DNA of 64,000 nucleotides from Candidatus Magasanikiibacteriota bacterium (GCA_017991415.1 JAGOQR010000002.1:97109-161108); one strand, 5' to 3'; shown: positions 2-51,900, counted from the stretch's first letter. The notes: a model not told the origin generated them from the sequence alone. Numbers and translations are program-made.

Positions 2-469
2 CCAAATGGCATTGGTAAAAGCACACTTCTGCAGGCACTTGCAAGCGGCACAGAAGAAGGCGCAACTATCGCTCCCGACGTTCGTGTTGGATACTACCGC
101 CAAGATTTTTCTGGTTTAGATTTTGAAAAAACTGCCTATCAAGCGCTCGAAGAAATGATGGATGACCCATGGAACCAGGAAATTTATGCTACTGGCGCGC
201 AATTCTTGCTTTCTTCGCAAGTATTAAAAAATAAAGTAGGAGCGCTGTCCGAAGGTCAAAAAGGACTCCTCTGTTATGCCAGATTTGTGTTGCAAAAACC
301 AGGACTCTTAATCATGGACGAACCTACCAACCATATTAACTTCCGTCACTTACCTATTATTGCCAAAGCCCTGGATGAATTTGAAGGTGCTATTATTTTG
401 GTCAGTCACGTACCAGAATTTGTGGACCAAATTAAGATTAATCAAGTTTTAGACTTAGAAACTTTATAA
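2..469 (+). CDS. ABC-F family ATP-binding protein, C-terminal part (5' end outside window)
   Basis: Frame continuous from position 2. The translation PNGIGKSTLLQALAS gives a Walker A motif. Downstream LSEGQKGLLCYARFV is an ABC signature (LSGGQ-like) and LLIMDEPTNHIN is a Walker B motif, typical of the second ABC domain of ABC-F proteins. Confidence 0.7.
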   Translation, partial: PNGIGKSTLLQALASGTEEGATIAPDVRVGYYRQDFSGLDFEKTAYQALEEMMDDPWNQEIYATGAQFLLSSQVLKNKVGALSEGQKGLLCYARFVLQKPGLLIMDEPTNHINFRHLPIIAKALDEFEGAIILVSHVPEFVDQIKINQVLDLETL

Positions 470-530
470 AGTTCGCATTGACTTCTTCATAGTTTTTTTG
501 ATAAACTAGGGCTACAAAAATTACAAAACT

Positions 531-620
531 GGAGAGATGGCCGAGTGGTTTAAGGCAGCAGTTTACTAAACTGCCGGGCTCGAAAGGGCCTCTAGAGTTC
601 GAATCTCTATCTCTCCGCCA
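531..620 (+). tRNA. Class II (long variable arm) tRNA, Ser-like (G73 discriminator, encoded CCA); apparent anticodon loop TTACTAA
   Basis: Acceptor stem GGAGAGA/TCTCTCC. D-stem GCC/GGC. T-arm TAGAG-TTCGAAT-CTCTA. Long variable arm. 3' GCCA encoded. Anticodon stem GCAGT/ACTGC encloses loop TTACTAA, which reads as anticodon ACT. That is atypical (A34); see findings. Confidence 0.65.
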
Positions 621-672
621 AAGAAACAAGCAAAATAAAGCAATCGACTTAATTAATTTAAGAACCTTAAAC

Positions 673-1047
673 ATGTCAGAGCGTGAATATAGCCCTATTC
701 AAGAAACACAAGAAATTACCCAAAGACCAGAATACGCTCAGGCTTGTGAAAATACCAGATATTCTGGCGACTTAGTTCGTGAACTCCTGAGATTAGGGGT
801 GCCCGCACCCGAAGTAAAAACATTTGCACTAGGCCGTTTAGAAATAAATATTAAAAATGGTTATGGCCTAAATACTTTGCGCAGTATCGCAAAGCAAGGC
901 GGAGCACTATCTGAAACAGAAGTAGAGACCATGTTTGCAGAAGTGACTGCTAAAATGTTAGCCGAAACACCCGCTGAAACCGAAGAACAAAAAGCAACCA
1001 GAGAAGCGAGAGAGCTAGAAGAAATGTTAAGCTTATACGAAAAATAA
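673..1047 (+). CDS. hypothetical protein (124 aa, acidic C-terminus)
   Basis: ORF sits between two tRNA genes with no recognisable motif. Coding-like composition. Confidence 0.4.
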   Translation: MSEREYSPIQETQEITQRPEYAQACENTRYSGDLVRELLRLGVPAPEVKTFALGRLEINIKNGYGLNTLRSIAKQGGALSETEVETMFAEVTAKMLAETPAETEEQKATREARELEEMLSLYEK

Positions 1048-1080
1048 AATTAAATAATTTTATATAAAGCGGCAACACCT

Positions 1081-1168
<88 letters not shown>

Positions 1169-1186
1169 AGTTTACACTCAAATAAA

Positions 1187-1215
1187 AAATACACGGATTG
1201 GCCGTGTATTTTTTA
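1187..1215. terminator. Rho-independent terminator hairpin, bidirectional (tRNA on + strand, ATP-grasp gene on - strand)
   Basis: ATACACGG-attgg-CCGTGTAT stem-loop followed by a T-run. A-run on the other side. Confidence 0.6.
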
Positions 1216-1226
1216 TTTTTAAAAAA

Positions 1227-2300
1227 CTAAGATCTAAGCTCTGGAAACATAAGGTAAATAAACTCTTTAGTCACCTCTCGTGATTTACCTTGCATTGGCA
1301 AGTCATGCATAGCAAATTCAGGCGCGGAATTCATTTCAATAATTGTATACGTTTCAGCAGTTTGCTGCTGAGATAAATCCTTGCACATAAAATCAATCCC
1401 CGTCCAACTTAAACCAGGAATTGCTCGAACTGCCTCAATTGCAATCTTTTTAACAGAAGGGTGCGCATCATCAGTTCTATCGACAGCGATGCCGCCTGCC
1501 ATAATATTTGAAACTTTCTGCAAACGTACTAATTGATTTTTTTCTGGAACTGAATTTTCAACCAAACCTTGAATATTAAGCAAATCAACAGAATTAGCAT
1601 CTAATACAATATAAGGATACAGGTGCTGAGAAATATTTCTCAAAGGATTTTTGTTTTCAATTTCAACCAACTCACTCACCGTATGAACACCATCACCAAT
1701 AACATGCGCTGGGATTCGCTCCATAACAGCAAGTACTTTTTCTTTGGTGGCCATAATACGATATTCACACCCAACAAACATTTCTTCTAAAATAAGAAGG
1801 CCTGGATACAACGGATTCTTAAAATAAGTTCGGATTTTTTCTAAACACTTATCAAAGTCAACCAGCTCCATCTCAACGCCTTTTCCATGAGAACCTTTTG
1901 CTGGTTTAAGTACAAGCGGTTTTTGTAACGAATCCCATATTGATTTAATTCGAGAATCTGAATCAGACTGATAAATAGTATACCCAGGCATTACAGATAA
2001 ACCAGATCTTTTAAGCATTATTTTACATAACTGCTTATCAGAGCAGGATTCCACGCCAGTAAAATTTGTAGTACTCGGGATTCTTTCTCTAAAAGTTAGA
2101 GTGTTATTTTTATAGTTCATTTGCACCACATCAGTATCTGGTATAACAGAGGCATCTATCCCCATTTTTTGCGCCTCTTCTATAATCATCTGTGTAGATA
2201 AAAATGGATCAATCTCCTCTTCACGAACAACTCCTTCAGGTAAGGATCTTGCAAAATACAACGGTTTAAATGAAGACATATATTGGTAAAATAAACACAA
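1227..2300 (-). CDS. ATP-grasp family ligase (RimK/cyanophycin-synthetase-like amidoligase)
   Basis: The protein shows a C-terminal ATP-grasp core. Motifs include KPAKGSHGKGVEM (Gly-rich ATP loop) and IIEMNSAPEF (E-x-N Mg-binding motif). Overall layout matches RimK-like ligases. Confidence 0.65.
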   Translation of the reverse strand: MCLFYQYMSSFKPLYFARSLPEGVVREEEIDPFLSTQMIIEEAQKMGIDASVIPDTDVVQMNYKNNTLTFRERIPSTTNFTGVESCSDKQLCKIMLKRSGLSVMPGYTIYQSDSDSRIKSIWDSLQKPLVLKPAKGSHGKGVEMELVDFDKCLEKIRTYFKNPLYPGLLILEEMFVGCEYRIMATKEKVLAVMERIPAHVIGDGVHTVSELVEIENKNPLRNISQHLYPYIVLDANSVDLLNIQGLVENSVPEKNQLVRLQKVSNIMAGGIAVDRTDDAHPSVKKIAIEAVRAIPGLSWTGIDFMCKDLSQQQTAETYTIIEMNSAPEFAMHDLPMQGKSREVTKEFIYLMFPELRS

Positions 2301-2306
2301 ATTAAT

Positions 2307-3341
2307 TTAAGACATTGCTTGAACTAACATCTCTGCCATAGCATCCATATATCGGCGCGCATCTATAGACAAAGAAGGTATACAAACTGCAGGGCGAGAA
2401 TTAAGCTCTACTAATTTAAATCCATCTTTAGAATTAACAAAGTCTGAAGCAAAAATACTTGGTCGATATTGCGCCAATACAGTGTTTATACGCTCTATCA
2501 TAGGAAGAAGTATTGGTGGTAACTGATCTAAAGACACCTGCACTTCACTGCCTCCCTGAGATACATTTGCTAAAAAAGAGCCGGGTTGTGGCACTCGCAC
2601 CAACATAAATACTGGGTTACCATTAATAGTAATAACACGAATATCGTGCAGGCCATCTACGATTCTCGGGATACCCACAGAATTATCTACAAATTCTTGC
2701 AATAAAATATTATCCCAACTGTCATAGAGGAATTCGTCAATCTCACCTACTGAACGTATATATATTCCTCGCCCGCCGGATAAAAAATTCTTCTTTACAA
2801 CGATTTTATCTGTTTTTTTTAAACCCCACTGGTTTACTATTTGCACATACTCATCATAGGAGCAAATAGTAGAAGTTTTGGGTGATAGATCTGGAAATAA
2901 ACGCGCCGTAGCAACCTTATCAACACAAATTTGATCAAGGTCAGGATGATTAATAATTGGACAATCATAAATAGCAGGAATTGTATTTTTATCATCACGA
3001 TTAAAAATAAGGTCTGCCTCAATATGTTTGTTTATCAATATAAGTTGCCCGTCCCGCACCTGCCATCCATGAGAAAAAATTCCTTTCCCCATATACGAAT
3101 TGCCTCGCACTATATATACTTCAATATTATGCTCTTCGACATTTTTGATAAGACCCTGATACACCTCCCAGTAAGGGTATACTGAGGAATTAAACGGGTA
3201 TCCCATCGGCTCTGAGTCAGAAAAATATATGGCTAATTTTTTCATAATACCTATAACAATAACTCTAACAACATACTCTGTCAACCATATTATTGTCTGA
3301 AAAAAAACCCTATGGTATAGTACGTTTTTAATCTGAAACAC
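2307..3341 (-). CDS. ATP-grasp family ligase (alpha-L-glutamate ligase/RimK-related)
   Basis: Motifs VVKKNFLSGGRGIYI and LVELNSRPA (E-x-N) are ATP-grasp hallmarks. It lies tail-to-tail/adjacent to another ATP-grasp gene. Confidence 0.65.
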   Translation of the reverse strand: MFQIKNVLYHRVFFQTIIWLTEYVVRVIVIGIMKKLAIYFSDSEPMGYPFNSSVYPYWEVYQGLIKNVEEHNIEVYIVRGNSYMGKGIFSHGWQVRDGQLILINKHIEADLIFNRDDKNTIPAIYDCPIINHPDLDQICVDKVATARLFPDLSPKTSTICSYDEYVQIVNQWGLKKTDKIVVKKNFLSGGRGIYIRSVGEIDEFLYDSWDNILLQEFVDNSVGIPRIVDGLHDIRVITINGNPVFMLVRVPQPGSFLANVSQGGSEVQVSLDQLPPILLPMIERINTVLAQYRPSIFASDFVNSKDGFKLVELNSRPAVCIPSLSIDARRYMDAMAEMLVQAMS

Positions 3342-3349
3342 TATAGTTT

Positions 3350-4876
3350 ATGATAAAAAAAATACTTGTACTCTGCACATTTACTTCTCTGATAAATGGC
3401 ATAATTTTTATACCTGCAAAAGCTCAAACACCCACTCCTACTACACCACCAATAACTACAAGCTTTTCTCTTGATGCAAAAATCACCGCTGAAAAAAATA
3501 TTCGAATCAACAAAAAAGCAATCTTTGACGCGTCTGATTCTATTTTAGCTACATCAACTATTCCTGCTGAATATATTTGGGATTTTGGTGTCGGACCTAA
3601 AATAGAAGGCAAAGAAGTTGTTCAATCATTTTCCGCTACTGGTAAACAAATAGTCACCCTTACCGTACGCCAAGGACAAGCACAAGCGAGCGCACAAAAG
3701 GAGATATTTATATTTAATAAAAAAGCTTTGCTAGTTGCAGACCAAACTAATATTGCTGCCATAGAAAGCATACAAGCGCAGGCAGCAGAAAATGGCATCG
3801 CCCTAGAACTACTGCCTACAGCAGAAAAAGAAGGAACGCTCCTCACCGAAGATGCTTTGGTACAAAAAATTAAAGAGGCAACAGACTATATTAAAGATTC
3901 CGATATTCTTCTTTTTTATACCCAATCTCCCGTAGGGCTGCAGGCGTTTAATTTATACTGGAGAGATCTTGACACCTCAACTAAAGAAATCATTAAAAAT
4001 AAGTTTCTTGCAGTTATTTCTGATAACAACCTGGACACTGCGGCAAATCTTGCATATCAAACATTTAACATTGTTGAACCAAGCTATATTTTACTGACAA
4101 GACCAGAAGCCATCAACCCTATATTCCTCACTGAAGATACAACCGACATAACCGAAACACTTGCAAATCGCGGCATTGAATACAAAATAATTGATAGACG
4201 CGGTGAAAAACCTCCGTTGTTTATGCTTTCTCGTTTCGTTACAGATCTTGTCTCAAAAGGCGTCTCATCAAACATTATCTATATCATTCTTATTGTCCCC
4301 TTTTTAGCCTGCATCGCATCTCTCGGCAAACAAATTATTGGCATCAGTACTTTTGGTATTTACACACCAGTCATTATTACCATCTCATTTTTTATTCTTG
4401 GCTTACGATTAGGCATTACTACCTTTATCTTCGCGGTCACCGTTGGCTATATCGTAAAATATATTCTTAATAAATTTGAATTATTGTACTTGCCAAAAAT
4501 AGCACTTAACCTGGCTATTATCAGTCTTTCTTTCCTATTTGTTATCTGGCTCGTGCTGCAATATGGCACATCGGTTCCATTATCAATGGCTATATTTCCA
4601 ATGCTTGTTATGTCAACTGTTTCAGAAAAATTTATGGCTGCGCAAAACGAAGAAGGCGTGCGCAGCGCAATTTTCGCCATTATCGGCACTTTATTTATCG
4701 TCATAGTATCATACTATTTTATTACCTGGTCTTATTTTAATAACCTCCTATTATCATGGCCAGAGCTCGTACTTACACCTGTTCTTATTACAATTATCTT
4801 AGGCAAATTTACTGGCCTTCGCCTTGCAGAACTGGTCCGCTTCCGCAGTTTACTTACTGAACATCAAGAAGAATAG
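3350..4876 (+). CDS. Membrane protein with an N-terminal signal, a PT-rich linker, an extracytoplasmic PKD-like domain and about 7 C-terminal TM helices
   Basis: N-terminus MIKKILVLCTFTSLINGIIFIPAKA is signal-like. YIWDFGVGP...GKQIVTLTV matches the PKD WDFGDG...Y-V-LTV signature. C-terminal 220 aa contain about 7 hydrophobic helices. It may correspond to the 7TM partner seen in RimK-related ligase cassettes (memory-based inference). Confidence 0.55.
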   Translation: MIKKILVLCTFTSLINGIIFIPAKAQTPTPTTPPITTSFSLDAKITAEKNIRINKKAIFDASDSILATSTIPAEYIWDFGVGPKIEGKEVVQSFSATGKQIVTLTVRQGQAQASAQKEIFIFNKKALLVADQTNIAAIESIQAQAAENGIALELLPTAEKEGTLLTEDALVQKIKEATDYIKDSDILLFYTQSPVGLQAFNLYWRDLDTSTKEIIKNKFLAVISDNNLDTAANLAYQTFNIVEPSYILLTRPEAINPIFLTEDTTDITETLANRGIEYKIIDRRGEKPPLFMLSRFVTDLVSKGVSSNIIYIILIVPFLACIASLGKQIIGISTFGIYTPVIITISFFILGLRLGITTFIFAVTVGYIVKYILNKFELLYLPKIALNLAIISLSFLFVIWLVLQYGTSVPLSMAIFPMLVMSTVSEKFMAAQNEEGVRSAIFAIIGTLFIVIVSYYFITWSYFNNLLLSWPELVLTPVLITIILGKFTGLRLAELVRFRSLLTEHQEE

Positions 4877-4878
4877 GT

Positions 4879-7236
4879 ATGGCTTTATCTCGTAATTACA
4901 AATTATCTTTTTTTGAACGGCTTGATGGAGTGCTTGGCATTAACGCACGCAATCTTTTGTACATAAGTCGATTTAATAGTAAAGCAAACAAAAGTTTTGC
5001 TGACGACAAAATGTTTACAAAAAATTATTTACAATCTCGAGGACTTGGCGCAGCCAAGGTATACACGGTGCTTAAAAATTATAACGATCTAAAACAATTC
5101 AACCCAAAAAGCCTACCCGACAATTTTGTTATCAAGCCAAATCATGGCTATGGCGGCGAAGGCATTGTGGTTTTTGCCGAAAAAAAAGGAAATAATTTTA
5201 TCGATATCGCTGGCCAAGAATATGACTGGAAAGCAATAAGCCGACATATATCCTCTATTCTGGACGGAGAATATGCTATTTCAGGATTAACAGACCAGGC
5301 AATTATTGAGGAACGTTTGGTAGCTCATAGTTTTTTTAAGCCCTATGCCAAACGCGGACTACCCGACATTCGAGTAATTGTATTCAACTATATTCCAATT
5401 ATTGCCATGCTTCGTTTACCAACCGACGAATCTCAAGGAAAAGCAAACCTTCATTTAGGGGCAGTTGGGGTAGGTATTGATATTGCTTCAGGCTGTGCCA
5501 CATACGGAGTATACAAAAATAAATTTACACGTACCTTACCTGGTGGAGAAAAATTATCAGAAATAAAAATTCCACACTGGGATGAAATTTTACTTGCAGC
5601 ATCTAACGCGCAAAAAGTGAGTCAGATTGGTTTTTTAGCAGTTGATATAGTACTCACAACCACTGGTATAAAAATTTTAGAACTCAACGCTCGCGCAGGT
5701 CTTTCAATCCAAATAGCTAACCAAGTACCGCTGCGAGCTCGCTTAAAAAAAGCAGCTGACCTAAAAGTACCAAGTCCAGAAAAAGGTGTCGAACTATGCA
5801 AGGCACTATTCAGCTCTAATGTATCATCTGATACCCGAGATACCAAAGACAGCCGCACACCTATTGGACTTTTTGAACATGTCGAGCTTCTTAATACTGG
5901 CAATAACACGGTGCTCGCAAAAATTGACCCGCACTATGATGGAGTACTTCTTGATAAGAGCCTGATAACGAATAAGACAGAAAGTTCATTTATTAATATA
6001 AAACTAAAGGGCAAACGGTTGACTATTCCAACTACATGCGGTGATTTATCTAGCCAACCATACAAAATTATTATTGGCGGAAAATTTCTTGAACATTTTA
6101 CTATTCATAGCACACTCAATAAACACCTCCTCTTTCAAGCACCTGCAACCGATAGTGGCCGTGAAGAAAAAATTATTGCCAACATCGATAAAAAACTCTA
6201 CGAGGTAGATAAAAAAATTACCATTGCTGGTTTCTTACGGCCTATAAACCACGACGAAGAAAAACGAGCTTTTTTTGAAAACCCTACCCGATCCCCTCAA
6301 TTTTTTTACCGTACAACTACTTTGGCTACTAACCAGATTAGAAAAGATCTCAAAGCCTTACCCGAAGCAAGCCATCCTTTATACAGCTTGTATCAAAAGA
6401 AAATAGCAGAAATAAATACAAAATTAGATTTACTCGAATCTTTGGATAGCCCTAAATTACAAACTGCCTCAGAAAAACTGTACGGCCCCGCCAACCGCAT
6501 CCTCTACGATCAAGCAGTGCGATATATTCATGAGCATCCGATTAGACCAGACACAAGCAACAAGGTGAGTTTTAAACAAATTGTAAAACGACTCACTACC
6601 TTTTTAGAAGAACATGCGCTCACTAATTGGCACATAAAAGTTGCCGCAGATAGAGTGAACGATATTTCAATTAGCTTAGACGGCACCATACATTTGCGCG
6701 AAGGAACGACCTTTACAGAAAATCGATTAAAGGCAGTTATTGCGCATGAAATTGAAACTCATATTTATAGAGCCGAAAATAGCAAACTACAAAAATATAA
6801 AATTTTTGAAATCGGTACCGCTGGCTATATTGCCACAGAAGAAGGTTTGGCAGTATACAATCAACGAGCCCTCAATGTACCGCTCGGAGAAAAAGAAATT
6901 TGGGCACCATTACGAAGTATCGGCGCATATTTGGCTCAAGAAATGTCATTTGTTGATTTGTTTCATTATTTAAAAAGTAATTACGGCCTAGAAGATGATT
7001 CGGCTTGGCGCACGTGTGTTAAAGTAAAACGAGGACTCGCTGATACAAGTAAAAAAATAGCCTTCACCCGAGATACTATTTACTTCAGAGGCTTGCAGAT
7101 GGTAGAAGAATTTTTAACAGATAACACTGCTGAAAAACTAAAAAATTTATATATTGGAAAAATTGGTATTGAAGACATAGACCAGCTTGGCGCGTTAAGT
7201 CAGTACAAAACAAGATATTTATTAAAAACAAAATAA
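4879..7236 (+). CDS. Fusion protein: N-terminal ATP-grasp ligase (alpha-L-glutamate-ligase-related) plus C-terminal DUF1704/QEGLA-motif domain with HExxH
   Basis: N-terminal half has FVIKPNHGYGGEGIVV and ILELNARAGL (ATP-grasp). C-terminal part has AHEIETHIYRAE (HExxH-like) and ATEEGLAVYNQ (QEGLA-like motif of DUF1704). Confidence 0.6.
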   Translation: MALSRNYKLSFFERLDGVLGINARNLLYISRFNSKANKSFADDKMFTKNYLQSRGLGAAKVYTVLKNYNDLKQFNPKSLPDNFVIKPNHGYGGEGIVVFAEKKGNNFIDIAGQEYDWKAISRHISSILDGEYAISGLTDQAIIEERLVAHSFFKPYAKRGLPDIRVIVFNYIPIIAMLRLPTDESQGKANLHLGAVGVGIDIASGCATYGVYKNKFTRTLPGGEKLSEIKIPHWDEILLAASNAQKVSQIGFLAVDIVLTTTGIKILELNARAGLSIQIANQVPLRARLKKAADLKVPSPEKGVELCKALFSSNVSSDTRDTKDSRTPIGLFEHVELLNTGNNTVLAKIDPHYDGVLLDKSLITNKTESSFINIKLKGKRLTIPTTCGDLSSQPYKIIIGGKFLEHFTIHSTLNKHLLFQAPATDSGREEKIIANIDKKLYEVDKKITIAGFLRPINHDEEKRAFFENPTRSPQFFYRTTTLATNQIRKDLKALPEASHPLYSLYQKKIAEINTKLDLLESLDSPKLQTASEKLYGPANRILYDQAVRYIHEHPIRPDTSNKVSFKQIVKRLTTFLEEHALTNWHIKVAADRVNDISISLDGTIHLREGTTFTENRLKAVIAHEIETHIYRAENSKLQKYKIFEIGTAGYIATEEGLAVYNQRALNVPLGEKEIWAPLRSIGAYLAQEMSFVDLFHYLKSNYGLEDDSAWRTCVKVKRGLADTSKKIAFTRDTIYFRGLQMVEEFLTDNTAEKLKNLYIGKIGIEDIDQLGALSQYKTRYLLKTK

Positions 7237-18973: not shown

Positions 18974-21900
18974 TTATGGCAGATTTTTTATCTTATCCAA
19001 TAATTCACTTGCTCTGGCGTCGAACCTATCCTTAGCATTTTTATCAGTCAATACTTTACTAATTTCATTTAAAAGATTCTCGTACTCAGCTTTATTAGTA
19101 GAATTAACATCCGCATTATTCAAAGAACTAAAGAAACCATTCTGCATCTGCGATATAAATAAATCATTTTTACCTTGGAATATAGCCGCAAGCTGCTCTG
19201 CTCTTTTTGAATCAAAGCCCACAATTTGATTCTCAACATTTATTTTTGCATACCCATTGGCTGTAATCCACTTTCTGTGATCAGCTTCAGCAATTTTGGT
19301 AGGATAAAAACCAGACCCCACATTTATTTCTCCAGTATTAACCGTTTTGGTAGCCTGATCATACTGCCCAAAAAATCTTTCCAACTGACCGGAACTAGTT
19401 CTTCTATCGCCTACCAAACCAAATAGCGCACCCGCACCTTTCATACCGGCACTCTTATTCGCATTACTATATAATGTTAAAGCACCTTGAGCTTTTTCGA
19501 TTCCACCAAAAGCATCATATACTTTCTTAGCAGCAAGGGTTTCGTCACCCGCCATAACAACCCTGCCTAAAATTTTACTTAATTCAGCTCTGATACGATT
19601 AGTATCATCAATGACTTCTGTCCAACCAATGGTCTTTAGAGATTCACTATCCCCAAGTTCCGCCGCTTCTTTACCTTCAGATTTGAGGGCTGTTTGTAGT
19701 GCCATGTTTCGTTGAATAGTTTTATTTTTAATCTGCTCTAGACGTTTGACTTCATCTGGTTTGTTAGCTGTACTCGCTGCAGCTATATCAACCTCTAACT
19801 GCTGAATTTTTAATGGCATAGCTTTTAATGCAAAGGTTTTATCTTCCCAACTCATTGCAGAAACTCTATCACTTTCTCTTTTTGCTGTTTTAGATTGAAT
19901 CTCGGCCAAAACTTGATTGGCTCTTAAATCATCACCCATCTTCCTAAATGATTTAGCGCGCTGCTCAGCTTCGGCTTCTTCTTTTGAAATATCAAAATCT
20001 TCTTTTATGTTTGCAGTTTGAGCTTTGGTGAAGTTTATAATTTCCTGAGTTTTTGCACCTTTGCCTTCTAATAATTTTTTTATTTGCTTTAACTCTTCAA
20101 GCTCTTTTTCTGCACGTAATTTTTCATCTAACTGCTTTGACGCCGCCTCTTCTTTTGCTGCCTTATGTTCCAAAGTATGACCTAGTCCAGTTTGAAGTAA
20201 TTTTTCTTTTGTCTCTAACCTATGACGCTCTTCTTCCGCATGCAAGGCATGTTTGGTTAAATCGGCTTTTTCTCCAGCCTCTAAAGCCCTCTTACTTCTG
20301 CTTTGATCAAATATTTGCGCTCGGCTAAACTTTCCAGATTTTGCCAATTCCTCAGGAGTTTTACCCACCTTAAGCTCTGCTGCAATTTCATTACTTGCAT
20401 CATTAAACTTCTTATAGAAAGTTTCTAATTTTTCTTTTTTAATATTGGACCCTGTTTCCTCTAATTTATGTAGTCTGGCCTCGGCCTCTGTCTTAAACTT
20501 TCCTATAGGCGTTTTGCTTGTACTTACCAAATGCTCAAGTTGCTCATGAGCATACTCTGCCCCTGATTCTGCATCTTTTGTGTACTCTTCTTTAAAAGCA
20601 GCTGGCGCGAACCATAAAGCCATGCGCGCCAAAGCCCTCGTATTGCCTGCAAAAGACTTTTTTAATTCTGTCTTTCCATTTTTGTCTGTATCAACTTCAT
20701 AGCCATTATCCTGCAACTGCTTACTGTAATTCTCTATAGCACTGTCATCATGACTAGCCACCGCAGCATTACGGAGAGCAACTAATTTTTGAATCTCTGG
20801 ATGTTCTTTTGATAAATCTTTGACCTTTTCTTTACCGTAAGCTTTATTAATATTTTCTCCAGCTTTATAAAGTCTTGGCTCTACCCACTTCTTTGAATAC
20901 CACTTAGACGCAGCAGCTTTAATTCTCCTACCTCTTCTATTCCACTCATCACCACCAACAATAGGAGCTTTCATTAAAGCAAATTTACCTGCAGCTTTGG
21001 CACCCTCTCCAACCTTACCCGCAGTCCATCTAGCAGCTTGTAGACCAGAGGCGTACATTGCCACTTTCTTACCCAACTCTCCAGCACTTCCCATCATAGA
21101 ACCACCCGCAACTCCTAATTCTTGGGCCATTTTTGCACCAGCAAGAAGCATGGCAATAGCGATTATAAAATTGGCCATTTTGTCCCAACTCATTATTTTG
21201 GTAATACCAACAGTTTCTTCTTCGGCTGTGCCTGATTGCAATAATTGATCTTTTTGTAAGGCGTTATGTTTTACAATGTCGTCGTGAATAGTTCCAGAAC
21301 CAACCGTTACAAAAGAAAGCCACAGAAAAAAAGCAATGACCGGACCAGACACGACATTACTACCAAATTGATGCCACCAATCGTGGGCATATTTTTCGGT
21401 TTGATGTAATACATTGAGGACAAATGCCAAAGGAGATAACACGATAAGCACCCAAAGCATGGCCATGCGAGCTACGATTAAAAACAAAAAGGCAAGCATG
21501 GTAACGAGCATGATAACTGAGAAAGTAATAGAGGCCACAGCCGCCACAAAAGTGACACTGGCACTGCCTGTTGTCCCCTGGCCTGCAGCTAACGCAAAAA
21601 TTTGATCTACCTGGAACATGTTAACCAGATTTCCGCTGGCAGTAGCAGCAATACCATTTACAAAGGTAACCATGACAATCTGTGCAATATCGATAATAAG
21701 ACCACAAATTACACGGCTAAAATTGACAAGTACGGCGGCTATAAGTAATTTTACCAGTAAGTGCTTATATTCGTATTGTTCTATTCCTAAAATAGTGCCG
21801 AATGCAATCATAAGCAGCACAACTACAAAGAACATATTGGTCATGTCGCGAATCATCACCCAACCTACCGTAACAGCCGGAGAGTCTATAAACCCGTTAT

Positions 21901-22165
21901 ACCCTGCAACCTCGATAATAAACTTGAGCACGAAAAAAGTGAGCTTGATAAAAAACCCAGCCAGTGCTAACAAAACAGAAGCAAAAAAATTCATGAGATC
22001 CTCGCCGATACCAGCATGAGCAGTAGGGGTAAAAATCAACCAGGCAGAGATAATAATACTAGACAGAACAACAATACTAACCAAACCTAATTTTTTTCGG
22101 GGACGAAAAAAATCCCAGCCTTTGCTAAGTATCAAGGTAAATGTGCTTTCAAGTTTCGCAAACAT
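18974..22165 (-). CDS. VirB6/TrbL-like polytopic membrane protein with about 700-aa K/E-rich coiled-coil C-terminal extension
   Basis: The N-terminal 330 aa or so contain 7-8 TM helices in a TrbL/VirB6-like arrangement. The remainder is lysine/glutamate-rich and predicted coiled coil. It is the first gene of the minus-strand T4SS-like operon. Confidence 0.55.
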   Translation of the reverse strand: MFAKLESTFTLILSKGWDFFRPRKKLGLVSIVVLSSIIISAWLIFTPTAHAGIGEDLMNFFASVLLALAGFFIKLTFFVLKFIIEVAGYNGFIDSPAVTVGWVMIRDMTNMFFVVVLLMIAFGTILGIEQYEYKHLLVKLLIAAVLVNFSRVICGLIIDIAQIVMVTFVNGIAATASGNLVNMFQVDQIFALAAGQGTTGSASVTFVAAVASITFSVIMLVTMLAFLFLIVARMAMLWVLIVLSPLAFVLNVLHQTEKYAHDWWHQFGSNVVSGPVIAFFLWLSFVTVGSGTIHDDIVKHNALQKDQLLQSGTAEEETVGITKIMSWDKMANFIIAIAMLLAGAKMAQELGVAGGSMMGSAGELGKKVAMYASGLQAARWTAGKVGEGAKAAGKFALMKAPIVGGDEWNRRGRRIKAAASKWYSKKWVEPRLYKAGENINKAYGKEKVKDLSKEHPEIQKLVALRNAAVASHDDSAIENYSKQLQDNGYEVDTDKNGKTELKKSFAGNTRALARMALWFAPAAFKEEYTKDAESGAEYAHEQLEHLVSTSKTPIGKFKTEAEARLHKLEETGSNIKKEKLETFYKKFNDASNEIAAELKVGKTPEELAKSGKFSRAQIFDQSRSKRALEAGEKADLTKHALHAEEERHRLETKEKLLQTGLGHTLEHKAAKEEAASKQLDEKLRAEKELEELKQIKKLLEGKGAKTQEIINFTKAQTANIKEDFDISKEEAEAEQRAKSFRKMGDDLRANQVLAEIQSKTAKRESDRVSAMSWEDKTFALKAMPLKIQQLEVDIAAASTANKPDEVKRLEQIKNKTIQRNMALQTALKSEGKEAAELGDSESLKTIGWTEVIDDTNRIRAELSKILGRVVMAGDETLAAKKVYDAFGGIEKAQGALTLYSNANKSAGMKGAGALFGLVGDRRTSSGQLERFFGQYDQATKTVNTGEINVGSGFYPTKIAEADHRKWITANGYAKINVENQIVGFDSKRAEQLAAIFQGKNDLFISQMQNGFFSSLNNADVNSTNKAEYENLLNEISKVLTDKNAKDRFDARASELLDKIKNLP

Positions 22166-23366: not shown

Positions 23367-26300
23367 CTAGTTATTTGGAGGCACAATTATTCTTCCACTA
23401 AATGTAGAAAACGGACCTTCAGGCAATTCACATTCATTCGCATAACAGTTAGACACTCCTGGACTTGCAAAACCACCACATGACCCGTTGCAATAACCCC
23501 AGTTATCTTTTAGCTGTACTTTTGGCTGGAACACACAACAACCGCCAGACAACGATTGTGTTTGTGCATCTGGACAGCTATCTGTCCAACCATTGCCTCC
23601 GCGAAGACATTGATAGACGTGGTCAAATCGGAAATAAGCTGAGTCACATGTTTTTCCTAAAATCTGACCAAAGTTTTGAGCTTTACTTTCGGCAAAACAG
23701 TTATCCAGGTACATACAATCTGTATTGGAGGCGCATGTTTTTCCTGTGTTAAGATCGTAGACTCCTGGTGTCGAAGAAGCAACCATACAAGTACCAGATG
23801 AACCACATCGGCCATTTACTGCCCCGCGCTGATTACGGAAATAACCATCCAAAGATACAACGCTCGTATCTCCCCAATCTAATTTAATTTTCTTAATCGG
23901 CATTTGATTTTTATCTGCAAAGCCAAAGAACTTTGCATTTACCAACGCGATATTAGTATTAAACAAAATATCTCCAGAAGATTTATCATTAATAGACATA
24001 CCAGTTATAGTACTTTCTAAACATTTACCGCCAGGTTTACAGCTTCCCAAAGCCATAGCCTTGGGGACTGGGTTAGCAAAAGAATCAGTAAAATTATATG
24101 GCCGCACCACAGTAGCAGAATCAGTACCTGGAGCAGTGGTTCGAACATAGGCCCAAGAAGTACCTGTAGGTACCCAATTCCAGACACTGTCTATTTTCGC
24201 AAAAATTTGAGCAAAACTACTTTTTGCTTGTGCAATTGATTTTTGGCTTGCCGGACCATTTACTGTTTCATTAGGAGACGGGCTTGTCTTTAAACAATCT
24301 CCGCCACAGCTATATGGTGAACCAAAGATTGCAGGAGGTAAAGATGGTGTAGGTTCACTATAATGGCTAAAAATACTAATGAGTGTTTCTGGTACAAGCG
24401 GAGTAAACATTCCCAAGCTGCCAAATGGCACATTTTGTAAAGAATTTTTATATGCCAATGTTCCTGGGTCGATTACATAGCTACTCCTACTCCACAGTCT
24501 ATCTGTCCAACCAATACTTGAGTATGGATTATCTTCGGTTTGAGCAATATTAAGACACGTTTCTCGCAAACCTACATTCAATGTAAACGAAGCAGACTCA
24601 GTATCACCCGCATCACCTGAAAAACAGGTTAAATTTATCCTATCCAACCTACCGTCCGAATTAAACACAGTTCTAATTGCACAACCATCATCATTGTCGT
24701 CTATATCTCCTCCCAAACAAATATCTTGATAATTATCATTACCCGCAACATCTATACTACCAGCACAATTTGATAATAAATCTTTAAACTGCTCTCCCTG
24801 TATACCGGCAGTATTAGGATCAGCATACTGGTAATGATTATTTCCATCACCCTCACCATCATCATACCGCATATACCAAAAATTTTTATCACGACCATCG
24901 GACCATACATACTTGCCAACATTCAATCCACCAGCTTCACCGACAAATACTTGCGGGTTATTTAAAATTGTTTCTTCAGATCCGTCTCGTTTTACCACCT
25001 GCATCTGAGAATTATACTTGGTAATATATCCATTTCTAATAAAAAATTTATTGGTACCGTTTGGAAACCAGTCACTATTACCGGTTGCTGCAATCATTAT
25101 ATAGTCAATCTCATCTCTATATATAGGCGTATTAACATTCAATGTTATTACGCGTTTTTCACGGCTATTTGATCCGTGACCAGCCGCACTAACCACTGAT
25201 TGCTGTCCAATCAGCTTATCATACGTAACAATGTCTGAGCCTACTATATTGACTACAGTTTGATTGCCTCTGGCTCCTAGACAATAATACTTACCAGATG
25301 CATCATTTGCTTGGAAACCAGCTTCAACGTGTTGATTGTTAATATCAAAAGCACCAGTAATATTATCTTTAGGGAACCAAGTAAGACATGCAAAAAGGTT
25401 TTGTTCGGCATTAAGAAGACGAGAAAAATCTGGCTCGATACAATAACCCTGCCAACCAATAAGACGTGATTGTTTTCTGACTTTTTGACAACTACCGTTT
25501 GTACAGTCTGCATCAGAGCTACAAACCTTATCTGCATTAACACCCCCCATACAAATACCCGGAACAACACTCTTTACGACTTGATTATTTTTATCCAAAA
25601 TACCCTCACTATTAGGACTATTAAAATTCCAATACTTAGCAAGCGAATCACCATACGTTACTTTGGTATAGTTACAATCACAACTATTTGCTTTATCGAT
25701 ATCTGTAGTAAAACCACTTGCTTCATTACATGTATTAACAGAATCAAACGTTACTGAATTTCCTACAGCCTCACTGTTTGGGAAAGGTGAAGTCTCTTCT
25801 GGGTATGCGCGACAAGAAGCAGGAAGTGATTGTCTTGAAACACCCGACAAAGAACTATCTAAATTCTGAACACATACTGGATTAGTGGCTCCAAGACAAA
25901 CACCAATATCACTGCGACCACAGGACTGGCCAATACTTCCTGGCGCACAAATTGGACTCAATGGATTAGCAGTACAATTTGACCCCGTGCCACACGCTAA
26001 TGTTTTTGCCAAACGCCATTCTGGAAGAGAGGCCGTGCCAATATTTACCTCGGAGAGCTCTTCTACTGGAAAGGCATTAAAGATGCTGTAACCACTGAAG
26101 TCTTGGCCTTTCCATTCGATGCTACGATTGCGATATGCATTATCGGTTAAGACTTGACCGCTTAACTCATGCGCATTATCAAGCCAATTAGCACAGTTAA
26201 TAATATCGCCAGTTGACCCAGAAGAAAAAGCCTGATTACAGCGACCAATAGCATCACAGACCTCTTTATAACTACCAGTCTGAGTATCAAAAACTCTATG

Positions 26301-29300
26301 AGAAGAACGGCACTGGAGCCACTCTCCACATTCTCTATCACGAGTTACTTTCAAAATTATATTTGCATCACTTGGTGTTGAACCAGAACCGGCTACCGGT
26401 GCTACAAGCCCATTATTTACTGCCGCACTAGCGGCATAAGATTTTTCTGTACTCCATAATTTATTTGGTAAATCAGTTTTATCAAGAAGAATACAACCAG
26501 ATTTTTCACTCACTTCACCATTACACTCATTTTGATGAGACTTTAATTTATCATCATTAATAAGATAATATGTTTTGTTATTCTGGTTGCGATCTATAAA
26601 CTCCGAACAACCACTTTGCACCTGCGGACACTCACCCACAAAATTATTATACGAACTAGAAACACCATATGACCAGAGACCATAACTGTTTCCAGATTGT
26701 AAATAGTTTGGATAGCACGGCTGCTCGTCTTTATTCTGACAGGTGGCACCTGCGGCACAGTCACTGTCGGTTGAACAGAAACCTGAAGCAGACGAACCAT
26801 TTGTAACACACTTTCCAACACCTTTCCAAAACCAACCGCTATATTTAACACCGTCTTTTGTTACGTTATCTTTGTATGCACAAACTTTTTGGCCAAGATA
26901 CTCTGGATCTTTAAAATACAATGCCCCATCGCCAGATGAATATGAGTTACAACCAACTGCCTCACTCTGACAAAGAGTAGTGTTAAACGTGGCGGGATCT
27001 TTTTTAACTAAAACATCTGCATATGAAGGACCGGTAGCAGTTTGTACTAATTTTCCAGCTTTTATACAACCCAAATCTACTGCATTACAAGTTGATTCTT
27101 TATTGGCAACCAAATAAATAGGCGTTGAGGTTGGAGTGTCAGGCTGAACAAAAATTGTAGAAGAAACTACCCGTGCGCCAGCACTGGTAATAGCAGCCAG
27201 AGTTGCCCCAACAACATTTACATAACAACCCGACTGCCCGATAGTAACCTGACAAGTGTACGCGGTACCAGCAATTGTTCTGCTTGCAGCACTACCTTCT
27301 GCGCCAGATAACCAAACATTGTATGCACGTGAAGTAGTTTCGTCTGGAGTATTATAAGTATCATACACAGCTGTACAGCCGATAGCTTTTTCTCTACACA
27401 AAGATGTAAACCCAGTGAGATACATTGGTCTATTGTCTGGTGTTTTGTACTCAGAACAGCCAAGAGATTCTCCTGGTAGATTGTCGTTTAAATTACTATC
27501 ACAGATAGGATCAACTTTTAAAGTGTTCTTAACTAAATAAATATAGTCAGTTACTTCTTTGAGACTCACATTATCTAGGAACAAACGTCCGTTGCTTTGG
27601 AATTTTAATCTGGTACTTGAAGCTGTACCGCCTAATTCTACTGGACCAAGATGGTAGCTCTGCCAAACATCACCCACACTCACGGTACCAAGAGTAGATA
27701 CTTCGTTATTTTCAAGAGAAACAGTAATGGTTTCGCCAGCAGAGCCTTTGGCCCAGAAAGTTAGATCGTAGCTTGCACCAGGATTAAGGGTTACATTTTT
27801 ATATACTTCTCCCCCACCACTATATGACAAGGAATGCTCTCCTGCATGAGTTGATTCTAATGACTGGGTTACGTTTGCCGAAGGAGCCCAGTTAGCCAGA
27901 GCATCAGAAACAATAGCTTGCTCAAAATTATTACTGAATACATTACGAACATTATTGCCTGAATTTCCTTTATAGGCTCGGCATGTATTTACCGAAGCTG
28001 CACAGGTTTTACTTGTGCCTGCAGTATTAGCAGCGCCACCTGGTAAACCGTAGTAAAAACATTGACCATCACGATATTCTCCACCTTGAGGACAAACTTG
28101 ACAATTATTAGCAGCACTGTCCCATAAACCTTTTTGTAACTCACATTTATCAAAAGACAAGGCAACTGTTTCTAGCTCCGTATCATTTAACCTGTATGGC
28201 ACACAAGCATTGGAAACAGCAATAGTTTTGGAGAGCAACCTGTAATATACAGCACCTTGATCATCATTAAATTGTCGACAATCTGGACTAGCTAAACCTT
28301 GTTTATATAATGTTTCATTACAAATTTCATCGTAATTCTCGAGGGAGCCGCTCGTACGATAGAAATATTTTGGACCACCATCGACTGGATTTTTTTCTAG
28401 AACAAATGCCTTTAATTGGAAACCGCCCACCGAAGATCCTTCGTATGTATAGAAGTTTTTTTGTTTGGTATTATCTGGCAAAATACAAGGACGCAAATAT
28501 GAAAAATGTTCGGTTGTTTCTAAGCCGTTAGTAGTAGCACTTAAATTTGTAAAGCTAGCACACCCCTCGTCTACTGAGCTACATTTTGCTCCTGAAGATG
28601 GAATGACATACGCGACAGATTGTCCAATAGAATAATTACTTGGCATTTCTCTATAGGCAGCATAACCAACACATTTCTTATCACACTGGTCATTCCAGAC
28701 AATTTGATTTTCAACAATTGAAGCTGGTGTAAATTTACCTGGGATACGGTCTCCTGTATAACTACTTGGTTGATACCAATTACAGTTTACTTCATCTGGA
28801 ATACAAGCTTGAGAATAATTACTGCATGCTGGATTTGTCTGCAAACTATTTAAGTCACTAACAGTTTGAGGCCAATCAATTGCAAGCGTCGTTGGATTAG
28901 TATCGTAACACTTGGAGTAATATGGGGCTTTACGCAAATAGAGATTCTGCGATGTGCTGACTGTTTTAAATGCCGAACAACCATCTGAATTTGCTGAACA
29001 ATTGGTTGAAAGCTTGCTATTGAAATAGATAGCCGAATTTTCTCCTACACTACTTAGATCATCTGGAGAATAGCCAGTCCACTTACCTGAATTATCTTGT
29101 TTTAAACTATACTGAGCACAACCAACTGTTTCTTGATTACAAAAACCAGTATCCAAAGAACGGTATAAATAACTAACATTTTTACCAGAACTATCCTGGA
29201 AAGACTGACAGGTTCTAAACTGAGAATCACATTTTGCAGCATCTATTTTCCAAACATTTTTTTCTCTGGTGCAATATCCTTGTGTGGCACAATTACCATC

Positions 29301-51200: not shown

Positions 51201-51900
51201 GAAATATTACTTCTACACCTTCGCTTTTACCAATCCAATTTTCTTGACTGGTACGAGCGCGCTCAATATAATCTACTTCTTTTAAGCCTTCTAATAATTT
51301 ATCCGCATATTTGGTAATAGCAAGCATCCATTGTTCTTTATTTCTTTTTTCTACCACCGTACCACAACGCTCACAACAACCACCAACCACTTCTTCGTTG
51401 GCCAATCCGATCTTATCTTTTGGGCACCAATTAATTGGCTGATTCTTTTTATATGCCAGTCCATGTTTATAGAATTGTAAAAATAACCATTGGGTCCATT
51501 TGTAATACTGCGGATCGGTGGTATCTACTTGTCTGGACCAATCAAAACCAAACCCAAGCATTTTGAGCTGGCGAGTAAAATTAGCAATATTTTTTTTGGT
51601 TACCTCGGCCGGTGGCTTACCGGTTTTAATAGCAAAATTTTCGGTAGGCAGCCCAAACGCATCAAATCCAATCGGAAATAATACATTTTTTCCTTCCATT
51701 CTTTTTTTGCGCGTAATAACATCCATGGCCGTAAACGGACGCGGATGACCAACATGCAACCCTTCACCACTTGGGTACGGAAACTCAATAAGACCATAAA
51801 ACTTTTCTTTTGTTTTACTTTCTGTAACTTCAAATGTTTTTTCTTTTGCCCAATATTTTTGCCATTTTGGCTCTATTTTTTTCGGGTCGTATTTTTTCAT
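48247..51900 (-). CDS. leuS: Leucyl-tRNA synthetase with two inserted enzyme-like domains (HAD-like and YdeN/RBBP9-like alpha/beta hydrolase)
   Basis: HVGHPRPFTAMDV (HIGH region). Editing-domain motifs. LRDWVFSRQRYWGEPIP, RETDTMPNWAGSSWYF and KMSKSRGNV. Extra segments: IFDFDGVIGDT... (HAD DxDG) and VLLIHGFEASGDSNWLPWMK...VGHSLGSKAA (GxSxG hydrolase). Confidence 0.85.
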   Translation of the reverse strand: MKKYDPKKIEPKWQKYWAKEKTFEVTESKTKEKFYGLIEFPYPSGEGLHVGHPRPFTAMDVITRKKRMEGKNVLFPIGFDAFGLPTENFAIKTGKPPAEVTKKNIANFTRQLKMLGFGFDWSRQVDTTDPQYYKWTQWLFLQFYKHGLAYKKNQPINWCPKDKIGLANEEVVGGCCERCGTVVEKRNKEQWMLAITKYADKLLEGLKEVDYIERARTSQENWIGKSEGVEVIFPLRVLSQPEGAHSVTVFTTRPDTIFGVTFLAISPELAKSWLDVGWAASNEVTTYIDQELKNRAATTTREEQEKTGIYAGIMAVNPVSKEEVPVWVTNYVMGGVGTGAIMGVPAHDERDFDFAKKFGLPIKQVVQTNSGANEKTKYLIFDFDGVIGDTFEACVASQMTMDGDKSREEVIESMTKYFSNKPNHVKGHSLTEAEVAAKLDWTRRFGEAMAKINYPLFSDFNKELQRIPNTKIAIISAGSSLYIKNRIQETGLNPTHVLTYEDHHSKEEKIEQVCKEWGISMQDVYYFTDSKADVYELENCMDRKKIIGCAWGYCGYDLLKELLPDEQILKVPQDVHRLFTQELYAGEGVSVHSDFLNGLTTSAAKQKVLEFVEKNNIGKKQINYKLRDWVFSRQRYWGEPIPLVFCEHCKNQKQKVLLIHGFEASGDSNWLPWMKTELEKQGFEVMVPTLPDSNHPDLNKWLAALQPYFDTLGENDVLVGHSLGSKAALHLLEKSKKKIGHVYLVASAIGEIESRDWKEFAQKHSGVDVEALKKFWNVSFDWKQVEKHALNKTVIISADDHMLPGSMRGTVPSTWVFKKWNGFRHFTDKKIPELLEEFLHSKNTGWVPLPESELPLKLPKVEKYQPTDTGESPLAAITKWVHTKCPQCGNPAKRETDTMPNWAGSSWYFLAYALGGEKMLNLKGDKFWNQDLLAYWQPVDWYNGGMEHTVLHLLYSRFWNQFLYDIGLVPTGEPYKKRTSHGMILAKGGEKMSKSRGNVINPDEMVDQFGADTLRTYIMFMGPFDQAVEWDTNGLVGVRRFLDKVWALQEKIVAGALSKSHVVDAKLETQLHQTIKKVTEDIETMRFNTAIAKMMELANEMSKQEKILAAHYALFVKALSPFAPHMCEEIWSQLGHKKSIALESWPEYDEKLTIENEITLAVQVNGKLRDTITMPAEISEEDAKKAVLSSEKIQKWLEGKEPKKIIYVKGKLISIVV

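Follow-up and report, generated by a model that had tools for sequence, protein, structure and literature searches.

A candidate system for reversible C-terminal tailing, combining ATP-grasp ligases, a MATCAP-type peptidase domain and a seven-helix membrane protein, in Candidatus Magasanikiibacteriota

What task could keep three ATP-grasp ligases, a peptidase-like domain and a membrane protein together in a single bacterial locus? The question is raised by positions 1227 to 7236 of a 64,000-nucleotide stretch of DNA, called here the window, from Candidatus Magasanikiibacteriota bacterium (GCA_017991415.1 JAGOQR010000002.1:97109-161108), whose lineage belongs to the Patescibacteria or Candidate Phyla Radiation (CPR). 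An initial annotation of this DNA had placed four open reading frames (ORFs) at 1227-2300(-), 2307-3341(-), 3350-4876(+) and 4879-7236(+), coordinates that were reproduced exactly, and had suggested a peptide-tagging system. Our analysis indicates that the locus very probably encodes a ligase-plus-peptidase system that adds residues to acidic C-termini and takes them off again, functionally tied to the seven-transmembrane (7TM) protein encoded by ORF3. A possible acceptor, put forward tentatively, is the cytoplasmic tail of ORF3, which ends in Glu-Glu (-EE) and which the ligases would extend and the MATCAP domain of ORF4 would trim. The proposal is built on the identities of the domains, their intact catalytic motifs, the linkage of the genes, the topology of ORF3 and a terminal Glu that co-varies with the type of peptidase; functional statements throughout were derived from sequence, structural models and gene context. 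The features concerned are the following:

1227..2279 (open frame to 2300), minus strand: ORF1, stand-alone ATP-grasp ligase, 350 aa
2307..3245 (open frame to a GTG at 3341), minus strand: ORF2, RimK/MptN/CofF-like ATP-grasp ligase, 312 aa
3350..4876, plus strand: ORF3, membrane protein, 508 aa
ORF3 aa 1-25: signal peptide, followed by a PT linker
3476..3706, plus strand: PKD domain of ORF3, extracytoplasmic (PKD_4, PF18911)
3707..4249, plus strand: extracytoplasmic alpha/beta three-layer domain of ORF3, flavodoxin/HemD/CheY-like
4262..4810, plus strand: seven-helix membrane domain of ORF3 (7TM_transglut, PF14402)
4811..4873, plus strand: predicted cytoplasmic juxtamembrane helix (GLRLAELVRFR) and C-terminal tail (...SLLTEHQEE) of ORF3
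4879..7236, plus strand: ORF4, three-domain cytoplasmic fusion protein, 785 aa
4918..5766, plus strand: RloC-type ATP-grasp ligase domain of ORF4, PF14397/TIGR02291-like
5842..6114, plus strand: degenerate RimB/RloA-type retropepsin-like domain of ORF4, aa ~322-412
5917-5934: AKIDPH motif of that domain, replacing AKIDTGA
6187..7200, plus strand: MATCAP/DUF1704 gluzincin metallocarboxypeptidase domain of ORF4 (PF08014)
6745-6762: HEIETH (HExxxH) of ORF4
6835-6852: TEEGLA of ORF4, with EEGLA at 6838-6852

When the ORF4 product was compared with family models, its earlier description as a 785-aa fusion of an ATP-grasp ligase domain to a DUF1704 domain was confirmed by both Pfam and NCBIfam. The N-terminal domain matched ATPgrasp_ST (PF14397) at aa 14-296 (E = 9.2e-57; 192.8 bits vs. 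a cut-off of 31.4) and TIGR02291 (5.2e-77; 258.9 bits, below the equivalog cut-off of 314.2), and on these scores it is placed within the TIGR02291 family, not as an equivalog. Residues K86, E144/E145, D256, E268, N270 and R272 of this domain were invariant in 51 aligned fusions, and its best ATP-grasp matches in Foldseek were ArgX-LysW (3vpb, the top match), RimK, the RimK-RpsF complex and CphA1, structural relatives that act on the terminal carboxylate of a protein or peptide, usually that of a C-terminal Glu. ORF4 has no signal peptide, and both of its peptidase-type domains are cytoplasmic.

The middle domain of ORF4 gave no match in a direct Pfam search, even at E = 10, and was detected solely by profile-profile comparison through sister proteins from Moranbacteria and others. 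In these shorter proteins, an ATP-grasp domain like that of ORF4 is followed by a C-terminal domain in which AKIDTGA.STSID is intact; this C-terminal domain corresponds to PF05618 (the RimB/RloA retropepsin-like 'Zn_protease'), and its profile matched the crystal structures of RloA (9G58 and 9G59; about 1e-9). Comparison of the ORF4 region with the sister PF05618 domain by hhalign gave probabilities of 97.75% (E = 1.3e-12) and 97.5% (6.7e-12), and the AlphaFold2 model of ORF4 (overall pLDDT 85.9) showed a beta-rich fold at this place. In addition to the altered motif, an internal hairpin is missing, and the Asp is also gone in some relatives; judged from its sequence, the domain is catalytically dead. 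A non-catalytic role in binding or regulation is plausible, because RimB, which cleaves polyglutamate, also binds RimK and modulates its ATPase activity. The state of the motif varies among loci: in L049 (8503-10770) an apparently intact DTG retropepsin motif (ARIDTGEG) stands beside an intact MATCAP domain, with a 7TM tail that does not end in Glu, and in Peribacteria relatives such as L039 (1888-4320) the motif has lost even its Asp and the canonical QEGLA is present.

The C-terminal region of ORF4 (aa 437-774 overall) matched PF08014 over aa 465-774 (2.1e-41; 142.5 bits vs. a cut-off of 27) and TIGR02421 at 4e-48 (164.7 bits, below the cut-off of 338.65). Its metal motif, given in the initial annotation as HExxH, is actually HExxxH (H-E-I-E-T-H), as in the MATCAP/TMCP enzymes, and the EEGLA (QEGLA-like) motif was found where it had been placed; this lineage has EEGLA and the relatives in Peribacteria have QEGLA. 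The DUF1704 motifs were conserved as anticipated, residues H623, E624, H628, R631, E654, E655, K717 and R718 being invariant in the 51 aligned fusions. The ORF4 profile matched human MATCAP (7Z5G) at 6.6e-21, with HE..TH, TEEGLA and KRG..DT aligned (HEIGTH and TEEGLA in the human protein), and in Foldseek the model matched 7z5g with E = 3.6e-13 and a target TM of 0.62, its pLDDT being >90 over most of the MATCAP domain. On tubulin, the human and Tetrahymena MATCAP/TMCP enzymes cleave Tyr and Glu from the C-terminus and trim polyglutamate chains; by analogy, the ORF4 domain would act as a carboxypeptidase on acidic C-terminal tails. The order of domains in ORF4 thus reads as RloC-like ligase, dead RimB/RloA-like domain and MATCAP domain, in a protein that databases annotate only as 'DUF1704 domain-containing' or 'tyrosine/phenylalanine carboxypeptidase domain-containing protein'.

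As for ORF3, the signal peptide, PT-rich linker, PKD domain and C-terminal 7-helix domain described previously were all recovered in family searches. In Pfam, PKD_4 (PF18911) covered aa 43-116 (8.6e-8; 32.6 bits vs. a cut-off of 27) and PF14402 covered aa 308-501 (2.5e-30; 106 bits vs. a cut-off of 25), and, in the PDB, a profile of ORF3 homologues matched collagenase ColH at its PKD domains (1.9e-11). That ORF3 is an RloB orthologue with an inactive transglutaminase ectodomain was ruled out by Pfam, where PF14400 was not recognised, and by the modelled fold; ectodomains of the 7TM family vary by lineage, being absent in the Moranbacteria type, PKD plus flavodoxin-like here and inactive transglutaminase in Proteobacteria. 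No solved structure for the 7TM domain was found by sequence-profile search. Hydropathy analysis revealed seven membrane segments, with eight K/R residues in the predicted inner loops and none in the outer loops after TM1. Therefore, by the positive-inside rule, an N-out, C-in topology is predicted, which places the tail on the same side of the membrane as the ORF4 enzymes. This tail ends in ...RFRSLLTEHQEE, the terminal Glu-Glu codons lying at 4868-4873.

The last residue was Glu in 101 of 102 full-length 7TM homologues (entropy 0.08 bit), whereas position -2 was E, Q or N and positions -3 to -6 were variable (2.6-3.3 bits). The terminal Glu run had a length of one, two, three or four residues in 21, 67, 12 and 1 homologues, respectively. 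Among genome loci, a set that shares organisms with the homologue proteins so that the two samples overlap, Glu-ending tails were present in 56 of the 58 whose partner carries MATCAP, fused or split, including three in which MATCAP is a separate downstream gene (tails -EEE, -EE and -EEEE). By contrast, in retropepsin-type genome loci, with intact DTG and without MATCAP, a Glu end was seen in 3/13, all from one species group, and -EE in 0/13; in independent metagenome loci of this type it was seen in 2/73, the tails being basic (e.g. ...KITRYL or ...IIKPK). The contrast by peptidase type had a Fisher p of about 1e-44, uncorrected for phylogeny, and the background in these genomes, with 7TM proteins removed, was roughly 8% for Glu termini and roughly 1% for -EE. 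Constraints from a ribosome-binding site or gene overlap on the terminal GAA/GAG were considered and rejected: the gap to the next gene ranges from -17 to +556 nt and the codons alternate, with Glu being kept, and the terminal Glu is missing from retropepsin-type loci whose junctions are just as tight.

The linkage of these genes was followed in 80 species-representative genome loci with identities spanning 29-100%. In about 70 of these 80 CPR loci, the ligase gene directly follows the 7TM gene and is read in the same direction; therefore, the two-gene unit of 7TM protein and ligase is the conserved core. Full-length ORF4-type fusions (43-95% identity) were found in Magasanik-, Kerfeld-, Buchanan-, Uhr-, Peregrini-, Peri- and Gracilibacteria, a protein identical to ORF4 is present in the Candidatus Magasanikbacteria metagenome-assembled genome GCA_020049755.1, and the complete four-gene arrangement recurs in close relatives. 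The clustering of ligases, peptidase and 7TM gene that had been pointed out in this window is thus beyond chance. A conserved cassette of RimK-related ligases, QEGLA proteins and 7TM proteins had also been invoked in the initial annotation; it exists joined and conserved in the CPR, but elsewhere its parts are found as two separate known cassettes, one (rloABC) with the 7TM protein and without QEGLA, and the other with QEGLA, a GshB-like ligase and N-formylglutamate amidohydrolase, without the 7TM protein. Judged by gene content, the CPR locus merges the two. No QEGLA gene was found in the rloABC-type loci of Aeromonas and Legionella, and no proteobacterial cassette of QEGLA with a 7TM gene in the plasmid collection, where QEGLA stands with the GshB-like ligase and amidohydrolase, or alone. 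For instance, on the rhizobial replicons L086 (4397-8141) and L087 (593-8207) a QEGLA/DUF1704 protein of about 620 aa stands between an N-formylglutamate amidohydrolase and an ATP-grasp 'glutathione synthetase' of GshB-like type, without a 7TM protein.

The two remaining ligases had been labelled RimK-like, a label that held for ORF2, which passed the Pfam RimK ATP-grasp model (2.9e-8; 34 bits vs. a cut-off of 21), but not for ORF1, which instead matched the G domain of cyanophycin synthetase (CphA1), an enzyme of three domains, N, G and M (TIGR02068, model positions 160-473 of 862; 7.4e-73; 245.9 bits vs. a cut-off of 850). By sequence, ORF1 is homologous to this G (ATP-grasp) domain and to the C-terminal domain of GshAB. 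No Mur-ligase-like M-domain gene was detected at the locus, and synthesis of cyanophycin is ruled out with a G-domain homologue alone; of the earlier idea of a cyanophycin-like system, only this stand-alone homologue is left. With TIGR00768 (RimK), ORF2 scored 38 bits and ORF1 50.9 against a cut-off of 143.4, and ORF4 stayed below the report threshold, having reached only 17 bits on the Pfam RimK model. Scores were also far below the cut-offs for Ddl (41 vs. 243), GshB (29.7 vs. 272) and AccC (26 vs. 775), placing the ligases, as had been expected, outside the D-Ala-D-Ala ligase, glutathione synthetase and carboxylase families. Taken together, membership in PF14397, PF14402 and PF08014 holds, and the locus is neither rloABC proper nor does it encode equivalogs of RimK, cyanophycin synthetase, TIGR02291 or TIGR02421. 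All three ligases come from subfamilies that extend acidic termini.

At least one ORF1- or ORF2-type ligase was found beside the core in 15 of 73 fusion-type loci and in 42 of 77 retropepsin-type loci, with both types in 8, and the assignment was confirmed by NCBIfam on distant examples (e.g. the ORF1 type in L113 and L148). Therefore, since both types recur beside the core in distant lineages, the three-ligase set is a recurrent design. In the retropepsin-type locus L113 (4001-8319), four ATP-grasp genes follow the 7TM gene in a row, in the order ligase-retropepsin fusion, RimK-like, cyanophycin-synthetase-G-like and RimK-like. The RimK-like ORF2 orthologue, whole (312 aa) in the relative L170, is in two pieces, ORFs of 199 and 132 aa, in L169 (5989-6968), one population of a close relative; this is a possible pseudogene or assembly error.

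Among the systems nearest to the core is the P. aeruginosa operon of rloA (a secreted retropepsin), rloB (an inactive transglutaminase plus 7TM) and rloC (an ATP-grasp ligase), in which RloA cleaves Glu chains of eight or more and a triple rloA mutant, which dies under hypo-osmotic conditions, is rescued by deletion of rloB or rloC (mBio 2025, PMC12239564). A part in tolerance of hypo-osmotic stress is known for Rlo systems only from the genetics of P. aeruginosa. Both systems set a 7TM_transglut-family gene beside a PF14397/TIGR02291-type cytoplasmic ligase and include a RimB/RloA-type retropepsin module. However, the module is here fused to the ligase, cytoplasmic, shortened and without its DTG, whereas RloA is separate, secreted and active; the CPR locus adds the MATCAP domain and two further ligase genes; the ectodomain is PKD plus flavodoxin-like, unlike the inactive transglutaminase of RloB; and the 7TM tail ends in Glu, which RloB-type tails do not. 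A gene of the rloB type affects the production of membrane vesicles in Shewanella.

Comparable cycles are known on other acceptors. RimK extends the -EE end of ribosomal protein S6 (RpsF) with alpha-linked Glu, and its protease partner trims the chain, binds the ligase and regulates it, which resembles the arrangement proposed here, although the acceptor would be the tail of a membrane protein instead of S6, the ligase belongs to another ATP-grasp subfamily and the eraser is a metallocarboxypeptidase. The tubulin cycle of TTL/TTLL and MATCAP likewise joins writers of ATP-grasp fold to an HExxxH MATCAP eraser on an acidic ...EE(Y) tail, its MATCAP domain being homologous to that of ORF4 in sequence and fold, with identical HE..TH, TEEGLA and KRG..DT motifs; it differs in that here writer and eraser share one polypeptide, the ligase is of RloC type and not TTL, and the putative target is a bacterial membrane protein. 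In the LysW carrier system, the source of the top structural match, a dedicated protein has an amine joined to its C-terminal Glu by an ATP-grasp enzyme, but the present locus has no kinase, reductase or aminotransferase and its candidate acceptor is a membrane protein without a LysW-like zinc finger. Finally, the proteobacterial QEGLA (TIGR02421) cassettes also pair a DUF1704/MATCAP-family protein with an ATP-grasp ligase, but as separate genes, without a 7TM protein and, in rhizobia, with the GshB-like ligase and N-formylglutamate amidohydrolase as partners.

The earlier suggestion of a peptide-tagging system agrees with these nearest characterised relatives (RimK/RimB, RloABC and TTL/MATCAP), which add and remove residues on acidic C-terminal tails, the function of the locus itself being drawn from them; for its substrate, left open at that time, there is now a specific candidate in the -EE tail of the 7TM protein itself. 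We propose that the locus would be a membrane-anchored, reversible system for adding amino acids to the C-terminus of a protein. ORF3 would be a signal or transport protein whose PKD plus flavodoxin-like ectodomain is exposed at the surface, with seven membrane helices and a short tail in the cytoplasm, and ORF4, translationally coupled to it (its start lies 2 nt past the ORF3 stop), would be docked at the membrane. The ATP-grasp domain of ORF4 would phosphorylate the terminal carboxylate of the ORF3 tail and add amino acids, most likely glutamate, which the MATCAP-type domain would take off again, as MATCAP/TMCP do on tubulin tails. The dead retropepsin domain could be a relic of an ancestral RimB/RloA-type eraser, kept for tail binding or ligase regulation, and ORF1 and ORF2 may add further acidic residues or lengthen the chain. 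The length of the tail would then tune the 7TM protein, possibly reporting cytoplasmic glutamate or osmotic state. Stated in full as a 'tail code', in which the encoded -EE end of a surface-exposed 7TM protein is reversibly extended by up to three ligases and trimmed by MATCAP, the proposal is possible but doubtful.

Several observations weigh against this proposal. The Glu-tail/MATCAP correlation lies largely between two clades and may reflect few evolutionary events. Intact MATCAP motifs are accompanied by non-Glu tails in L046 and L049, and a nearby MATCAP-like gene by a non-Glu tail in L142; a joint loss of motif and tail in L046 was considered and discarded, its motif being intact (HELETH), which makes it a true exception. 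Tails are basic or neutral in CPR loci of the retropepsin type and in the rloABC loci of Proteobacteria (in Aeromonas the 7TM protein ends in ...GATPGKDK, without a terminal Glu), and therefore the tail cannot serve as acceptor throughout the family. Unless regulated, a ligase fused to a peptidase would form a futile cycle, and the placement of the ORF4 domains relative to one another is uncertain in the model (pTM 0.52). Furthermore, the eraser of Pseudomonas, RloA, is periplasmic, which is easier to reconcile with an exported product than with a cytoplasmic tail.

Such a product is the basis of an alternative that we regard as unlikely, in which the ligases would polymerise glutamate, perhaps aspartate, into a free oligo- or poly-alpha-glutamate that the 7TM protein exports or displays as an envelope or osmotic-buffer polymer; the fused peptidase would limit the length of the chain, and the -EE tail would be merely a primer or a mimic for product docking. 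A near-invariant terminal Glu is left unexplained if the 7TM protein is merely a pore, and a carboxypeptidase is unable to free the chain from a primer. In agreement with export, RimK also produces free poly-alpha-glutamate, and in P. aeruginosa the secretion of RloA, together with suppression of the rloA1-3 defect when RloB or RloC is lost, implies that a product of these two arrives in the periplasm; however, the two peptidase-type domains of the CPR fusion are on the cytoplasmic side. Retropepsin-type and proteobacterial 7TM proteins do without a Glu tail, the QEGLA protein and RimK of Photobacterium are induced 27-fold and 52-fold at low salinity, and runs of several ligase genes, as many as four in L113, resemble stepwise peptide assembly, but no transporter-family similarity of the 7TM domain was detected by Pfam or by profile search of the PDB. 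That the substrate is another protein or a small molecule, such as S6 or an amino-group-carrier-like intermediate, with the 7TM protein as a sensor or scaffold that regulates the enzymes and the -EE tail as a pseudo-substrate docking into, or auto-inhibiting, the MATCAP or ligase pocket, seems to us quite unlikely. The neighbouring genes include no conserved candidate for such a substrate, and strict adjacency and start/stop coupling with the 7TM gene indicate a 1:1 complex, although RimK-family enzymes do have soluble substrates, ArgX/LysX-type enzymes use a C-terminal Glu as metabolite carrier (3vpb again) and the ectodomains, which differ between lineages, suggest a sensor whose inputs differ likewise. 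That the number of encoded terminal Glu residues varies (1-4) suits a substrate that is reset post-translationally better than a shaped inhibitor.

Amidation of an envelope glycan or of peptidoglycan, by which amino acids would be joined to carboxyls of a surface polysaccharide or wall precursor with the 7TM protein as flippase or acceptor platform, is very improbable. PF14397 is named 'sugar-transfer associated ATP-grasp' in Pfam, but the conserved core contains no glycosyltransferase, and MATCAP and retropepsin are enzymes of peptide tails. Wzy_C, nucleotidyl-transferase and epimerase genes do lie a few kb upstream on the source contig; they are separated from the cassette by ABC-F and tRNA genes and are not conserved beside it in other lineages. 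The phenotypes of rlo mutants, which include beta-lactam sensitivity and altered cell shape, would also fit such a role. An anti-phage defence system was rejected, as PADLOC gave no match for any of the four proteins.

Should reversible tailing of the 7TM protein be correct, RpsF and SdeA, the only polyglutamylated proteins known from bacteria, would be joined by a third with this or a similar tail, and C-terminal polyglutamylation would reach a membrane protein of bacteria. Such tailing would also identify the acceptor that is missing for Rlo-type systems, provide a bacterial counterpart, and possible evolutionary source, of the eukaryotic tubulin tyrosination/glutamylation cycle, and explain why genome-reduced episymbionts retain four genes for tailing, in a module kept in many CPR lineages. 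ATP-grasp ligase/protease pairs such as RimK/RimB and RloC/RloA are emerging as regulators of stress tolerance, antibiotic sensitivity and biofilm formation in bacteria. To our knowledge, no function has been assigned so far to bacterial DUF1704/QEGLA proteins. The CPR variant places writer and eraser on one polypeptide, with a MATCAP-type enzyme in place of the aspartic eraser, and its Glu-tail pattern offers a concrete substrate hypothesis for Rlo-type ligase/protease systems. A literature search found no published description of the CPR fusion, the dead retropepsin domain or the Glu-tail pattern.

Regarding the layout of the locus, ORF1 and ORF2 are adjacent, as first described, but both in tandem on the minus strand and not tail-to-tail. 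The true start of ORF1 is probably M8 (position 2279, 350 aa), the length annotated in the source genome and in relatives, and that of ORF2 is probably M33 (position 3245, 312 aa): orthologues are annotated at 312-315 aa in relatives, where tblastn alignments begin at residue ~33. With the revised ORF2 start, the divergent intergenic region measures 104 bp instead of 8 bp. Promoter-like hexamers are present on both of its strands (plus, 3293-3321; minus, 3284-3256), with a count of consensus matches no higher than the shuffled expectation, so that the evidence for promoters is weak. The features flanking the coding regions are these:

3246..3349: divergent intergenic region between ORF2 and ORF3, 104 bp
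531-620, plus strand: tRNA-Ser, anticodon ACU, passing the Rfam tRNA model
1081-1168: tRNA-Ser, anticodon GCU, passing the Rfam tRNA model

The initial annotation had seen in the tRNA-Ser genes a hint of amino-acid supply, an idea that has no basis because ATP-grasp ligases take free amino acids; the genes merely mark a spot that varies between relatives. The stretch from ORF1 to the ABC-F gene (window 469-1227) differs among close relatives: here it holds a tRNA-Ser, a 124-aa ORF without a Pfam match (673-1047) and the second tRNA-Ser, and at the equivalent spot L170 (8172-11371) carries DUF2326, MC6 and CTD10 genes of conflict-system type. The tRNA-Ser(ACU), with the anticodon loop UUACUAA, lies 460 nt upstream of the normal tRNA-Ser(GCU); A34 is seldom found in bacteria outside tRNA-Arg(ACG).

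Elsewhere in the window, two large minus-strand ORFs, one of 2522 aa (23367-30935) whose sole match is a CBM_4_9 carbohydrate-binding domain and the other of 1063 aa (18974-22165) without a Pfam match, adjoin type-IV-secretion-like genes (DUF87/TraG P-loop, TraC-like and PrgI) at about 13.8-17 kb. A leucyl-tRNA synthetase of 1217 aa (48247-51900, minus strand) shows an unusual architecture, with two extra hydrolase domains, HAD_2 (aa 379-534; 2.4e-9) and Ser_hydrolase/alpha-beta hydrolase (aa 656-804; 2.4e-15), between its editing and anticodon-binding domains.

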